Origin: an uncultured archaeon
GTDB lineage: Archaea > Asgardarchaeota > Lokiarchaeia > Sigyniarchaeales > SOKP01
Direction: 5' to 3'
DNA: 28,793 bases
NCBI GenBank assembly: GCA_964447495.1
Contig: CAYUTF010000036.1
Coordinates: forward strand, 1 to 28,793
Shown: piece after piece, positions 10,146 to 28,769 of the stretch
Layout: every line of letters starts with the position of its first letter
Position numbering within the stretch: position 1 is the stretch's first letter
The notes under the pieces: model-generated
Told to the model about the DNA's origin: nothing
Databases searched by the model: none
What the model saw: the letters and a program-made list of their open reading frames with translations, nothing else
Position numbers and translations under genes: made by a program

Positions 10146-10679
10146 ATGACAGATTATGACTTTACGTTTAAAATTATGATGTTAGGGGACGCAAGTGTCG
10201 GAAAAACCTCGCTTACAATTAGGTATATCTCAGGATTCTTTCTTGAGGATTTGAAACTGACTATTGGGGTTGATTTTTATTCTAAGACTACTAATTTTAA
10301 AGGAAAGAAGGTAAAGTTACAGATCTGGGATTTTGGGGGAGAGGAACGTTTTAGATTTTTACTATCTCAGTATTGTAAAGGAGCTAATGCTGCATTTTTC
10401 TTATATGATATTACTAACTCAATATCTATTGATCATCTGCCCGATTGGACGCAAATTATTCGAGAACATGCTGGAGATATACCAATAATGTTAATTGGCT
10501 CAAAAATCGATTTAGAAGAGTTTAGGGCGGTTCCCAGGAATGAAGGAATACTCGCTGCGAAAAAATATAATTTATCCTCATTTGTAGAATTATCTTCCAA
10601 AACAGGTCAAAATGTTGAAGAAGCTTTTAATTTAATGACAGAATCACTATTTGAAAAATATTCAAAATTTCCGACCTAA
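10146..10679 (+). CDS. Rab-like small GTPase (Ras superfamily)
   Basis: G1 GDASVGKTS, G2/RabF1 TIGVDF, G3 KLQIWDFGGEERF, G4 GSKID, G5 ELSSKTGQNVEEAF. Confidence 0.95.
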   Translation: MTDYDFTFKIMMLGDASVGKTSLTIRYISGFFLEDLKLTIGVDFYSKTTNFKGKKVKLQIWDFGGEERFRFLLSQYCKGANAAFFLYDITNSISIDHLPDWTQIIREHAGDIPIMLIGSKIDLEEFRAVPRNEGILAAKKYNLSSFVELSSKTGQNVEEAFNLMTESLFEKYSKFPT

Positions 10680-14559: not shown

Positions 14560-15141
14560 ATGGAAGTAGAACAAGAAGAAAAACCGGCCTATGTGTTTAA
14601 AATTTGCTTAATTGGCAATGGTGGAGTAGGTAAAACGTGTATTGCTCGGAGGTTATGCTTCGACACGTTCGATTCCAATACAAGATTAACGATTGGTATC
14701 GATTTCTATACCTATGATCTTCCCATTATCATTGGTGGGGAAAAAACTTTCGTACGCCTTAGTATCTGGGATTTCGGAGGCCAAGAACAGTTCAAGAAGA
14801 TGTTCAGTTATTACATTAATGGCGCGAATGGAATATTTCTTGTTTTTAGTTTATACAATCTTAATAACACCTTACTTGGGTTAGATTGGTGGAATGAGCA
14901 TCTTGATAAGCTTATTCATGATACAACACCGAAGATTTTAGTTGGATGTAAATACGATTTAGTAAAAGAAAAAGAGAAAAAAATGAATGAGGTAATTATT
15001 GAAAATTTTCGGAATAAGCAAGGGACCATTCCTTATTATAAGACCTCCTCGAAAGAAAATTGTAATATTCGGGAAATCTTCATAGATATGACAAAAATAA
15101 TCCTCGATATTAATCATTTCGAGTATGACAAGATACTTTAG
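14560..15141 (+). CDS. Rab-like small GTPase (Ras superfamily)
   Basis: G1 GNGGVGKTC, TIGIDF, G3 WDFGGQEQF, YYINGANG, G4 GCKYD, G5 TSSKEN. Confidence 0.93.
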   Translation: MEVEQEEKPAYVFKICLIGNGGVGKTCIARRLCFDTFDSNTRLTIGIDFYTYDLPIIIGGEKTFVRLSIWDFGGQEQFKKMFSYYINGANGIFLVFSLYNLNNTLLGLDWWNEHLDKLIHDTTPKILVGCKYDLVKEKEKKMNEVIIENFRNKQGTIPYYKTSSKENCNIREIFIDMTKIILDINHFEYDKIL

Positions 15142-23402: not shown

Positions 23403-23528
23403 CTGATATATCACGTAGATATTATCAGAATTGTCCATAATACCCATAATTTCCTAAATTTTTATATATCGATGATCCTATAAATAATGTAATTAGTCTT
23501 TTTCAATTAGAGTAATTAGGATATTGAA

Positions 23529-25478
23529 TTGGTCTCCGACAAAAATAAGAATATCTTAGAGAAACAATTAAAGACGTTAGGTCAGAAAATTAGGATTGAT
23601 ATTTTAAAGAAATTGAGCACTAGTCAAGTTCCATTATCTTATTCAGTCCTTCAAAAAGAAATTTTAGTTTCTCATTCTAATTCAACCAATTTATCATTTC
23701 ACCTTAAAACGTTAAAGAATAGCGATTTAATTAATAGTGTGGAGGAAGGCTATTCTCTTACAGTCTTAGGAAGACAAATTTTAAAAAATATTTTGTCTAT
23801 TGAACAAATCCTTAATATACAAAATAAATCAATAATGATTCGAACCTCTAAATATTCAAAAGAGCCATTCAATCTAAGCAAAGTTGAAGATTACTTAGTT
23901 AATGAAGGGAAAATGGAGATCTTCCAAGCAAGACAGATAGCTCAAGAAGTTGAAGAGAGATTATCAAAAACCAATATAGAATATCTTACTGCTCCCCTTA
24001 TGAGAGAATATATCAATGGGATTCTATTAGAAAATGGTTTAGAAAAATTAAGACACAATCTTACACGATTAGGTACTCCTCCTTTTGAAGTATCAAAATA
24101 CTTTGGAAACTCAAGTTTAAATCCCGAATCATATATAAAAACACTGGGTTCAGAGATATCTGAGCAGTATTTATTATTAAATCTTCTCCCTAATAATTTA
24201 GCAGATTTGTACTTATCTGGTGAAATTTTCCTATTACATCTAGATTATTGGAGCTTAAGACCCTTAAGCATTTATCTTAATACTTCCGATCTACTTAAAT
24301 ATATTACTTCTAATACAAATTATAATAAAACGATACCAGATTCCTTAGATTTCAGGAAATCCATTTTAGAATTCTCTAATGCTCTTAGAGAATTTAAACC
24401 TTATTTTTCTGAAGACCTCTTATTAGGTGATTTTAATTGTTTAATAGATATTTACAATGAAGATTCTGGAACATCTCAACAGTTTTTTGACATCCTTTTT
24501 TCGGAATTACTGAGATTTAACTCTACTTATTATGATGAAAAATCCCATTTAACTATTAATCTTAAATCTTTGAATAATGACTTATTTAAAAAGCTGATAT
24601 GCTATATGAATTTAGAAAAGAGTCACTATTTCCCAAATTTGATGATAGCCTACTCGAATTACAAAAAAAGTAATGAATATGATATATTGCCCTTTTTTAA
24701 TTCTTGTATTCAGGAAAATATTAAATTTTATAACGAAAAAGAATCTAAAATGATGAATTCAACGCTTAATCTTGTGAATTATAAGCCTAATTCTAATAAC
24801 ATAACAAATAAAATCATTTTAGATAAGATATTGATAAATCTTCACACGATTGCTTTAGAATCAAATCAGAATGATGATATATTTTTCAATTTAGTTCAAG
24901 AGAGGGTAAATGATGTGTTTGAACTATTCGCGTTCAAAAAAGAGTTTGTAAATAAAAAGTTACATAATTCAAAAAATTGGAATCATCTAATAACTACTTT
25001 TTTTAATAAGGAGAATAAAGACTGGGTAGAGACTAGTTCAAAAGCAATTAGTTTTTTTGGGTTAAATAAAGCTATAAAACAGCATTGCGGTATTGAAATT
25101 GATAGGATCGAAAAGAGTGAGAAATTTGCTTTAAAAGTGTTATCTCTGATCAATGCCATTATAAAGGAGAGAAATAGCGAAGAAAATGACTTTTACACCT
25201 TAAATCAGCCACATAATGGCGCTTATTTACATGAAACATGGATTAATGATAGCTCAAACTTAAACAAAAATACCCCAAGTTATTCTATGGACTTAATCCG
25301 GAAATATACTAAATTATCTATAGACAAACAACTCATACTATATAAAAAATTTGAAAATCTTCTCAATGGTGGCAGTATTTTTAATTTTTACGTTAAAATA
25401 AATGGTGTAAATTTGATAGACGTAATAGAAAAAGTAGTAAATTCTAATGTAGCGGCTTTCTCAATAACTCATACATAA
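23529..25478 (+). CDS. ArsR-like wHTH + ATP-cone + degenerate class III ribonucleotide reductase (NrdD-like) fusion protein
   Basis: N-terminal LKTLGQKIRIDILKKL...LSYSVL...NLSFHLKTLKNSDLI..YSLTVLGR (wHTH). IRTSKYSKEPFNLSKV..YLTAPLMREYINGILLENG...LTRLG (ATP cone of archaeal NrdD). Relic barrel motifs ADLYLSGEIFLLHLDYW, INLHTIALES, ISFFGLNKA, GGSIF. No CxxC/CxxC or RxxGY at the C-terminus. Confidence 0.8.
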   Translation: MVSDKNKNILEKQLKTLGQKIRIDILKKLSTSQVPLSYSVLQKEILVSHSNSTNLSFHLKTLKNSDLINSVEEGYSLTVLGRQILKNILSIEQILNIQNKSIMIRTSKYSKEPFNLSKVEDYLVNEGKMEIFQARQIAQEVEERLSKTNIEYLTAPLMREYINGILLENGLEKLRHNLTRLGTPPFEVSKYFGNSSLNPESYIKTLGSEISEQYLLLNLLPNNLADLYLSGEIFLLHLDYWSLRPLSIYLNTSDLLKYITSNTNYNKTIPDSLDFRKSILEFSNALREFKPYFSEDLLLGDFNCLIDIYNEDSGTSQQFFDILFSELLRFNSTYYDEKSHLTINLKSLNNDLFKKLICYMNLEKSHYFPNLMIAYSNYKKSNEYDILPFFNSCIQENIKFYNEKESKMMNSTLNLVNYKPNSNNITNKIILDKILINLHTIALESNQNDDIFFNLVQERVNDVFELFAFKKEFVNKKLHNSKNWNHLITTFFNKENKDWVETSSKAISFFGLNKAIKQHCGIEIDRIEKSEKFALKVLSLINAIIKERNSEENDFYTLNQPHNGAYLHETWINDSSNLNKNTPSYSMDLIRKYTKLSIDKQLILYKKFENLLNGGSIFNFYVKINGVNLIDVIEKVVNSNVAAFSITHT

Positions 25479-25479
25479 G

Positions 25480-26400
25480 TTAATCAGCTAATAATTCTGC
25501 TAATAATGCTTTTCTCATCGGAATTCCATAGTAAGTCTGTTTAAAGTATATTGCTTTATTAGAGGAGTCAACTTCTGGAGAGATTTCATTGATTCTTGGG
25601 AGGGGATGCATGATCCTGAACTTTTCTTTTGTTTGGGCTAAATCATCTACATTAAATACATAAAAATTCTTAACTCTTTCATATTCTTCTATATCTGCAA
25701 ATCTTTCTTTTTGAATTCTCGTGACATACAAAACATCTAAAATATTCAATATATTTCGGTATTGTGCGACTTCTTTAAATTTAATTTGACTATGGCGAAG
25801 ATACTCCTTATCTCTATTTCTGAGCATTAAATCTTTAGGACTGATGAAATAGATGTTAGCATCATAATTTGAAAGTAAAACAGCAAGAGAATGAACGGTT
25901 CTTCCATATTTTAAATCTCCCATAATTCCAATATTTAAACCATCTAACTTTATGCCTTCTTCAGTAATAGTGAGTAAATCTAATAAAGCTTGAGTTGGAT
26001 GTTCACCACTACCTGATCCTGCGTTAATGACTGGAATCCTTGAGAATCTTGAAGCCATTTTAGCTGCTCCTTCTAATGGATGCCTCATTACGATACAATC
26101 ACTATAATTTTCTACTGTTCTGATGGTATCTGCTATACTCTCCCCTTTTTTTATAGAAGATACATCTCCTGATGAAAACCCGATAACATCACCGCCGAGA
26201 CGATGCATTGCGGATTCAAAACTTAAACGTGTTCTTGTAGATGGCTCAAAGAATAATGTCGCTAGTATTTTTCCCTTTAAGAGTTCGGAATTTTGTTTAT
26301 TGCTAATCATATCTCGTGCTTTTGATAAGATATATTCAATGTCTTCTCGAGAAAAATCTCTAGCAGATATAATACCTTCTTTAAACTTCTCTTTAAACAT
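25480..26400 (-). CDS. pyrB: Aspartate carbamoyltransferase catalytic subunit
   Basis: FFEPSTRTRLSF, KGESIADT, INAGSGSGEHPTQALLD, GDLKYGRTVHSL, YVTRIQKER, MHPLPR. Confidence 0.98.
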   Translation of the reverse strand: MFKEKFKEGIISARDFSREDIEYILSKARDMISNKQNSELLKGKILATLFFEPSTRTRLSFESAMHRLGGDVIGFSSGDVSSIKKGESIADTIRTVENYSDCIVMRHPLEGAAKMASRFSRIPVINAGSGSGEHPTQALLDLLTITEEGIKLDGLNIGIMGDLKYGRTVHSLAVLLSNYDANIYFISPKDLMLRNRDKEYLRHSQIKFKEVAQYRNILNILDVLYVTRIQKERFADIEEYERVKNFYVFNVDDLAQTKEKFRIMHPLPRINEISPEVDSSNKAIYFKQTYYGIPMRKALLAELLAD

Positions 26401-28715: not shown

Positions 28716-28769
28716 AGATATTACCTAAGTGATATTGCTGAATAATAAAAATAGAATTAATATTCACGC
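28679..28769 (+). repeat. Direct repeat copy 2 (91 bp)
   Basis: Ungapped ~81% match to 27177-27267. Confidence 0.9.

Follow-up and report, generated by a model that had tools for sequence, protein, structure and literature searches.

Introduction

What might a protein do that joins a DNA-binding domain to the body of a ribonucleotide reductase (RNR) from which the catalytic parts have gone? The question is raised by a gene on a 28,793-nucleotide stretch of DNA from an uncultured archaeon (Asgardarchaeota; Lokiarchaeia; Sigyniarchaeales; SOKP01), which corresponds to positions 1 to 28,793 of contig CAYUTF010000036.1 in assembly GCA_964447495.1 and is referred to in its entirety as the window. 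The gene (23529..25478, + strand, stop codon included) encodes a protein composed of a winged helix-turn-helix (wHTH), an ATP-cone and a drifted relative of the class III RNR NrdD, here called the HTH-NrdD-like protein. An earlier reading made from the letters of the window (the sequence-only reading) took it for a pseudo-enzyme that had become either a nucleotide-responsive DNA-binding regulator analogous to bacterial NrdR or an inactive partner of a true NrdD. The comparative analysis described here fully supports the description of the protein as an HTH, an ATP-cone and a catalytically dead, C-terminally truncated NrdD that is conserved and not decaying, and the protein probably senses nucleotides and helps to control the synthesis of DNA precursors. 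In archaea, the Asgard relatives of eukaryotes among them, the way in which the synthesis of deoxyribonucleoside triphosphates (dNTPs) is adjusted to need is largely open.

Domain architecture and loss of the catalytic parts

The gene was delineated from its open reading frame (ORF), Pfam matches, homologues, an AlphaFold2 model and Foldseek matches. It is an uninterrupted ORF of 649 amino acids (aa) with a TTG start codon, the stop of which ends at 25478, leaving a gap of 1 bp to the convergent pyrB ORF that begins at 25480; both the intact frame and the proximity of the pyrB stop had been read correctly from the sequence. The winged helix (aa 14-88; 23568..23792, + strand) is matched by Pfam DUF7347 (PF24038) with 41.9 bits against a cut-off of 27.6, and HTH_20 (19.9 versus 27) and HTH_5 (12 versus 22) stay under theirs. 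In the AlphaFold2 model, which was built from a 49-sequence family alignment and has a predicted local distance difference test score (pLDDT) of 83.9 and a predicted template modelling score (pTM) of 0.74, this part consists of helices 7-16, 20-31, 38-46 and 55-64, strands 68-71 and 74-77 and a final helix 79-99. The alpha-alpha-alpha-alpha-beta-beta-alpha topology is shared by ArsR/SmtB regulators and DUF7347, and together with the Pfam match it bears out the ArsR-like winged helix of the sequence-only reading. The recognition helix, NLSFHLKTLK, is close to invariant in the family; ArsR/SmtB recognition helices carry a signature of the S-x-H-L-x-x-L type. What sets the protein apart from ArsR/SmtB regulators is that a proposed sensor and scaffold of 550 aa is joined to the winged helix.

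The ATP-cone (aa 102-185; 23832..24083, + strand) is recognised by Pfam PF03477 over aa 102-171 with 20.0 bits, under the cut-off of 25.8, which is exceeded in seven of the 15 relatives tested; in the model it is cone-like, with a beta-hairpin plus helices. It had been called well preserved, which by Pfam is an overstatement, although of all the domains it is the one best conserved in orthologues. It is followed by a conserved region which comprises helices and the first barrel strand (aa 186-262; 24084..24314, + strand) and is the counterpart of the dimer-interface region of NrdD. The remainder (aa 263-649; 24315..25475, + strand) is a drifted NrdD alpha/beta barrel, identified by Pfam, alignment and model. 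The NRDD profile (PF13597) matches aa 367-647 at profile positions 201-505 of 562 with 59.5 bits versus a cut-off of 26.2, and the NrdD equivalog TIGR02487 is not reached (47.7 bits versus 326.35). The top Foldseek matches are all class III RNRs, namely 8p28 of P. copri (E 2e-17), 9dca of S. thermophilus, 8p2c, 4con of T. maritima and 1h78 of T4 (to 1e-10), so the NrdD fold proposed earlier is upheld by structure prediction. A phmmer search of the PDB sequences with the whole protein and with the ATP-cone alone gave nothing useful.

The functional residues were compared by using the true NrdD of the same genome as an anchor, aligned to TmNrdD and PcNrdD. This protein (contig C15, 707 aa) matches NRDD with 470.8 bits over profile positions 1-560 and retains RPFC, the CC finger-loop motif, a CPHC..CPQC Zn site and RITGY. 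The functional residues described for the P. copri enzyme are Cys171 on the first strand, Cys416 in the finger loop and Gly711 in the glycyl loop, and its HxHD motif holds the triphosphate of the substrate (PMC11226230). In the HTH-NrdD-like protein the first-strand (beta1) Cys is replaced by Ser (SLRPLSIYL), and among 74 orthologues the position is occupied by Ser in 40, Gly in 33 and Ala in one. The equivalent of HxHD is FLLH, and [A/V/I]-L-L-[N/H] in the 74 orthologues; FLLH and the Ser both lie in the aa 186-262 region. The finger-loop CC segment is without a counterpart in the alignment to the true NrdD (alignment A1), and the sole Cys in this region, Cys393, is not conserved. The finger loop was scored by this alignment, Cys conservation and the model; a 352-row MAFFT alignment was dropped since the true NrdDs were gapped there too. 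The C-terminus, ...AAFSITHT, stops just ahead of the point where the Zn CxxC starts in the true NrdD; none of the 74 orthologues has a CxxC within its last 60 aa, and the glycyl-radical loop (RxxGY) would lie beyond the end of the protein. All three losses noted by the sequence-only reading, which had found no Cys in the HIHDL..C segment, none in the finger loop and an end before the Zn site and glycyl loop, are thus confirmed. The only conserved Cys is Cys520, present in 74/74 orthologues and away from the catalytic positions; it is surrounded by an invariant H-C-G-I-E-x-D-R motif (window positions 25071-25094, aa 515-522 region) which has no equivalent in the true NrdD and could be a ligand or metal site.

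Conservation and distribution

A word-indexed search scored 8000 candidates and yielded 481 homologues at E<=1e-3; the top 120 of these are all 635-677 aa long, share 49-66% identity and have the same Pfam architecture. An exhaustive search of representatives gave 657 matches at E<=1e-3, of which 320 also pass 1e-10 and 136 pass 1e-30. Relatives are encoded by 128 stretches in species-representative genomes, and in 78 of the 80 that were compared the ORF is 634-672 aa long, the remaining two being one at a contig end and one of 556 aa. In a survey of 400 genomes of the phylum, 167 yield a hit at E<=1e-20. Within the organism's own family 124 of the 134 genomes have the short form at full length, and other families have relatives of 710-780 aa.

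The ratio of nonsynonymous to synonymous substitution rates (dN/dS; Nei-Gojobori, 108 pairs) is lowest in the ATP-cone and region 186-262, at 0.086 each, and rises to 0.127 in the winged helix and 0.258 in the barrel; mean identity to the window protein is 76%, 61%, 66% and 36% in the same order. By these measures the N-terminal 260 residues are the most constrained part, and the barrel is relaxed yet still selected. As a whole the protein evolves much faster than the true NrdD of the same genomes (45-66% versus 80-86% identity).

These data bear on the possibility that a true nrdD lies behind the gene, whether as a recent pseudogene or through an error of assembly or annotation. In public records many members do go under the name 'anaerobic ribonucleoside-triphosphate reductase' or 'hypothetical protein'. 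This explanation is refuted, with hardly any probability left to it, by intact ORFs of the same length at 78/80 loci and in 124/134 family genomes, by dN/dS far below 1 in every domain (0.09-0.26), by conserved synteny, by the separate true NrdD and by other samples which contain 0.94 and 0.77 of the window's sampled words. Close relatives and per-domain dN/dS were among the checks that the sequence-only reading had proposed, and both speak for a retained gene.

A sequence box shared with the RNR genes

The exact 9-mer CCGACAAAA lies over codons 3-5 of the gene (23536..23544, + strand), where it forms a candidate operator shared with the upstream regions of nrdD and class II RNR genes. It is found at +8 in 79/81 orthologues and is kept at synonymous positions. 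Codon 3 within the box is TCC, GCC, ACC, CCC or GTC (S, A, T, P or V), such that the residue varies and the third-position C is fixed, and codon 4 is always GAC despite a genome of 31% GC. At five loci a stop codon follows CCGACAAAA and the real start lies downstream, with the box still retained. Because the residue varies and the 9-mer stays, even upstream of the real start in those five loci, the pattern is, judged by the codons themselves, the signature of a nucleic-acid element and not of a peptide. Against an expectation of about 6.3 copies in 1.18 Mb of flanking DNA, 84 are observed, 78 of them at the gene start and six elsewhere.

The true nrdD genes of 30 related genomes have a conserved upstream block; its end is formed by CCGACAAAA, at a distance of about 85 nt from the start codon. 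When one criterion, an exact sense 9-mer within -300..+30 of the start, is applied to all gene sets, the box is present in 76/78 HTH-NrdD-like genes and 26/28 nrdD genes; for the class II RNR gene (nrdJ) the exact 9-mer is found in 4/30, the 8-mer core in 14/30 and a relaxed core in 18/30. By the same criterion it is found in none of the genes that surround the HTH-NrdD-like gene, namely pyrB (0/73), S12 (0/66), L30e (0/61), NusA (0/61), L44e (0/73) and S7 (0/66). The exact sense 9-mer is also absent upstream of nrdG (0/27) and of a truncated nrdD paralogue described below (0/17 readable regions, of 20). The control comparison consists of nine gene sets examined by hand. The gyrB gene was considered as a further target and rejected, its site in the source genome being conserved in 1/28. 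Other exact-box sites in the source genome lie near a histone gene, a ribbon-helix-helix (RHH) gene, an AlkZ-like fragment and two ORFs of unknown function. The shared cis-element of the HTH-NrdD-like gene and the RNR genes is new here.

The 18 class II RNR loci with CGACA-type boxes among the 30 often carry them as tandem pairs, 11-12 nt apart and near -270, and a single CCGATAAAA or CCGACAAAA is found at -48. In the sister family, an exact box is located at -65 of the class II RNR gene and inverted copies lie at around -180 to -230; among the latter, TTTTGTCGG is found at -183 (G138) and -198 (G143). The nrdD loci (L097-L126) contain a second conserved block, AAAATATTAACGATAATAA, at about -140 and some 48 nt upstream of the nrdD box; it includes CGATAATA, which resembles the CCGATAAAA variant at -48 of nrdJ. 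At the nrdJ loci L127-L146 about 300 nt upstream of the gene are conserved in blocks besides the boxes (e.g. CCATAGATTTATCAA and TAATCAATnnCTTAATA), and this region could serve as a complex promoter or an extended leader.

The placement of the box raises the possibility that it acts in RNA, as an element of the 5' mRNA to be recognised by a small RNA or an RNA-binding factor, the HTH-NrdD-like protein then being either unrelated or itself RNA-binding. Within the family all copies are indeed on the sense strand and downstream of putative promoters: those of nrdJ lie at -48 and about -270, that of nrdD at about -85 and that of the HTH-NrdD-like gene at +8. The inverted copies of the sister family favour a reading at the DNA level, however, as does the tandem spacing, which is approximately one helical turn and fits DNA recognition, and the window contains no match to an Rfam family. 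An RNA element is accordingly regarded as improbable.

RNR genes of the genome and the predicted homodimer

The source genome (3.81 Mb, 98.4% complete, 31% GC) encodes, besides the true NrdD on C15, an NrdG activase on contig C11 (158.6 bits versus a cut-off of 131) and a class II RNR on contig C43 (L013:1-1749, - strand) with an ATP-cone, an RNR_Alpha domain, a B12 insertion domain and an NPCGEQ motif. The separate intact nrdD that the sequence-only reading had asked after is therefore present, and its remark that the window holds no NrdG was correct, the genome's copy being the one on C11. The class II enzyme was missed by a whole-genome scan with PF02867, found through its ATP-cone and then confirmed by Pfam. 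A scan of the genome with PF03477 detected only the HTH-NrdD-like protein and three RNR-type proteins, and NrdR (TIGR00244) was not found in this 98.4%-complete genome.

A second dead NrdD is encoded on contig C46 (L002:1186-2979, + strand). It is 597 aa long and has an ATP-cone and no HTH; Glu stands in place of the first-strand Cys, the finger loop has been deleted and the chain ends before the Zn ribbon. It shares 48% identity with the true NrdD and groups with it on a tree (SH-aLRT 100; Shimodaira-Hasegawa-like approximate likelihood ratio test). ORFs of this type, of 596-645 aa, occur in many genomes of the family and have a conserved promoter block of their own without the CCGACAAAA box. 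In some relatives (e.g. G154, G155, G157, G159, G161 and G273) the matches to the true NrdD and the class II RNR are split in two within frames of 1048-1687 aa, which suggests inteins in these RNR genes.

Two copies of residues 186-649 of the HTH-NrdD-like protein are predicted to pair symmetrically, with a score of 0.78 versus 0.00 for the best control. The contacts are made by helices 188-218 and segment 239-244, three runs have at least 93% of contacts in common, and the pLDDT of the partner does not fall below 78. The mark used is reached by 20/30 proteins that were solved as pairs of one chain and by 1/23 that were solved as single chains; since NrdD dimers have already been solved, the pass may show only likeness.

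Taken at face value, this conservation of an NrdD-type interface would suit an inactive subunit which pairs with the true NrdD or the C46-type paralogue and thereby tunes class III RNR, the HTH being secondary. The dimer-interface region is strongly conserved, pairing through it is predicted (subject to the same caveat of likeness), and the genome has both a true NrdD and a second dead paralogue. The distribution of the gene points the other way. Three genomes of the same family have no NRDD-family match besides the HTH-NrdD-like gene (G158, 99% complete; G159, 98%; G278, 95%), and it is again the only such match in G135, G138 and G143, sister-family genomes that are each closed in a single contig and encode class II RNR. 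That six genomes keep the HTH form without a true NrdD argues against an obligate role as its partner, and the strong purifying selection on the winged helix (dN/dS 0.127) would be left unexplained. The partner option of the sequence-only reading is consequently disfavoured, and we rate it as highly improbable.

A candidate regulator of the RNR genes

The reading that we favour, with moderate confidence, is that the HTH-NrdD-like protein is a nucleotide-sensing, autoregulated transcription factor of RNR genes with a logic like that of NrdR. It builds on the observed architecture, catalytic loss, purifying selection, distribution and shared box and on the predicted NrdD-like homodimer. In such a scheme the NrdD body, devoid of radical chemistry and substrate binding, would survive as a dimerisation scaffold. 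The ATP-cone, and possibly also the former specificity-site region at the dimer interface, would sense ATP/dATP or dNTPs, and the N-terminal ArsR-like winged helix would contact the DNA and recognise boxes of the CCGACAAAA type, both at the 5' end of the regulator's own gene and in the regions upstream of class II RNR genes and of the true nrdD. RNR transcription, and that of the regulator itself, would thereby be tied to the nucleotide pool, the same logic as in bacterial NrdR within a lineage that has no NrdR. We infer that the cone still binds nucleotides and that the winged helix binds the box, and by analogy regulation would take the form of repression at high dATP. The functional interpretation of the sequence-only reading is partly supported: its structural part stands, the regulator is preferred over the partner, and the binding steps rest on inference as before. 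Its NrdR-like option gains comparative support from the shared 9-mer, the box-free controls and a genome without NrdR.

Several observations weigh against the proposed regulator. The box is tied to co-regulation only, and the HTH-NrdD-like gene could be a mere co-regulated target. It is a single asymmetric 9-mer, and symmetric dimers with ArsR-type winged helices usually read inverted repeats. Its place in this gene, within the coding sequence and some 70 nt downstream of the putative TATA, is unusual for an operator. Genome-wide CCGACAAAA is not enriched (25 copies seen versus about 22 expected), and the signal of the box is one of conserved placement, not of frequency. The nrdG gene and the truncated paralogue are box-free, as counted above, and in five distant relatives of the long form the gene start is without a sense box. 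As to the protein, the ATP-cone is below the Pfam cut-off and has R-T in place of the canonical K-R, which is also the case in the true NrdD of the same genome, and the barrel is under selection and has the invariant HCGIExDR motif, hinting at a function beyond that of a scaffold.

The main rival explanation follows from the first of these points: the gene would be a member and not the master of an RNR regulon, another factor would read CCGACAAAA, and the protein would act in some other way through its HTH and ATP-cone, for instance by binding DNA at other sites, by buffering nucleotides or by a new non-radical activity of the barrel, in the manner of a bifunctional enzyme and regulator. A shared box shows co-regulation and not the identity of the binder. 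The selection on the barrel (dN/dS 0.258), with Cys520 and its motif invariant in 74/74 orthologues and absent from the true NrdD, would suit a barrel activity, and the distant long forms lack the box at their own start. It is the winged helix, the ATP-cone and the helical interface, though, that are most conserved and not the barrel, and every known substrate-binding or radical residue is gone. Regulators commonly carry their own operator, as is reported to be often so for NrdR (PMC9110341), and the PF03477 scan revealed no other regulator with an ATP-cone, NrdR itself not being found. On balance, mere membership of the regulon is thought unlikely, if far from negligible, and control of the RNR genes by the HTH-NrdD-like protein is preferred.

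Comparison with known systems

The HTH-NrdD-like protein shares with NrdD the fold, consisting of an N-terminal ATP-cone, a helical dimer-interface region and an alpha/beta barrel, and the predicted dimer region. It differs in its additional N-terminal winged helix and in having no beta1 Cys, HxHD, finger-loop Cys, Zn ribbon or glycyl-radical loop. NrdR is described as rare in archaea and as often controlling its own gene (PMC9110341). The likeness to it consists of a predicted DNA-binding domain joined to a cone-like domain that Pfam scores under its ATP-cone cut-off, a short box common to the RNR genes and the protein's own gene, and a genome with several RNR classes. In contrast to NrdR, the DNA-binding domain is an ArsR-like wHTH and not an N-terminal Zn ribbon, a whole dead RNR body is attached, the box CCGACAAAA is asymmetric, unlike the paired palindromic NrdR box, and there is no homology outside the cone. 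The concept of a metabolic enzyme fold joined to an HTH that controls its own pathway is the same as in the riboflavin kinase/regulator RbkR, going by the description of that protein (PMC5397151); in the HTH-NrdD-like protein, however, the enzyme part is dead and derives from a radical enzyme.

No paper describing a family of HTH, ATP-cone and dead NrdD was found in the literature searched, supplementary files aside. The text of a study of RNR insertions and extensions, its supplement aside, makes no mention of helix-turn-helix, winged, DNA-binding or Asgard (PMC9669993), and in an Asgard Tn7 preprint nrdD appears only as an attachment site.

Longer relatives and evolutionary history

Distant relatives have the same DUF7347 and ATP-cone on a longer NRDD body that lacks the beta1 and finger-loop Cys. 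These long HTH-ATP-cone-NrdD-like proteins of other archaea thus share the architecture and both Cys losses with the window's clade, and differ from it in that they retain the Zn ribbon and some of them a 'GPY' tail, both of which the window's clade is without. In P0152, P0155 and P0156 (766-769 aa) the NRDD profile is matched almost end to end, and the CxxC..CxxC ribbon is kept together with a degenerate 'GPY/GPM' tail, with no first-strand or finger-loop Cys; P0205 and P0269 keep the ribbon alone. The source labels of the long-form clusters include Jordarchaeia/Freyarchaeota, Thorarchaeota, Bathyarchaeota and Nitrososphaerales.

In a quick, unrooted IQ-TREE analysis of 42 rows the short forms make up a monophyletic clade (SH-aLRT 99), next to which the type found in the sister family branches as its sister (100), and the true NrdDs adjoin the long forms with Zn ribbon and G tail (98). 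The parsimonious reading of the tree and the distribution would be a stepwise loss, in which the chemistry went first and the C-terminal domain followed.

Promoter elements and neighbouring genes

A block resembling a B recognition element (BRE) and TATA box, TTCCTAAATTTTTATATA (23451..23468, + strand), lies at about -80 and is the putative core promoter of the HTH-NrdD-like gene, with no more than four mismatches in 65/81 upstream regions. Further upstream a distal element, ATATCACGTAGATATTATC (23408..23426, + strand), is conserved as ATATCAC..ATATTATC at a fixed position of about -121 in 78/81 orthologues, with TATCAC invariant in 78/78 matched. It was rejected as a marker of a regulon: a position weight matrix scan of the 3.8-Mb genome returned its own site (23.8 bits) and one weaker site (28717-28735, - strand, 18.9 bits), which scores below the weakest training sequence and fronts no gene. 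The pyrB promoter is equally well conserved among the family genomes, and conservation of a promoter block by itself is therefore not special.

The synteny of the locus is nearly fixed and consists of rpoA2-L30e-NusA-S12-S7, the HTH-NrdD-like gene, the convergent pyrB and L44e, with S7 (rpsG) before the gene in 72/80 loci and pyrB after it in 77/80. The pyrB gene (25480..26400, - strand), assigned from its ORF and synteny, encodes the catalytic chain of aspartate carbamoyltransferase and is outside the box set. In the closed sister-family genomes G138 (L157) and G143 (L159) it is directly upstream and on the same strand, a position that is usually that of pyrI, so that the adjacency is kept between the families and the orientation differs. 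A role of the HTH-NrdD-like protein as a replacement of PyrI was considered and rejected as unlikely because a separate PyrI-like ORF of 127 aa (partly masked) is present on contig C57. The complete Asgard syntenic block, including the HTH-NrdD-like gene, is also found on a contig labelled 'Candidatus Nanopelagicaceae bacterium' (L051, DATKTW010000033.1), which is probably mis-binned.

Elsewhere the window has two genes for Ras-family small GTPases (10146-10679 and 14560-15141, + strand), which are typical of Asgard genomes, and near them are genes for Pus10, NurA, a GH127 glycosidase and RNA polymerase A'/A''.

Significance

Taken literally, the database name 'anaerobic ribonucleoside-triphosphate reductase' would lead to a class III RNR being ascribed to genomes in error; three closed genomes have only the dead form of NrdD. 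The family offers a concrete and testable candidate for the control of DNA-precursor synthesis, with a defined protein, a 9-bp box and three targets in nrdD, the class II RNR gene and its own gene. If the proposed regulator is real, it would be a clear case in which a radical enzyme has turned into a pseudo-enzyme transcription factor with its allosteric sensor kept. A bolder version, which we put forward tentatively as possible rather than probable, is that an entire RNR has been exapted as the master dNTP-pool sensor of Asgard archaea. Both allosteric sites would be kept, the ATP-cone's a-site as well as the specificity site at the dimer interface, and would read the ATP/dATP ratio and the dNTP balance, and the winged helices on CCGACAAAA boxes would govern how the class III and class II RNR genes, as well as the gene of the sensor itself, are transcribed. 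Were this true, an analogue of NrdR would have been invented independently from the very enzyme that it regulates, and the long forms would make the sensor ancient enough to span the Asgard and TACK lineages.

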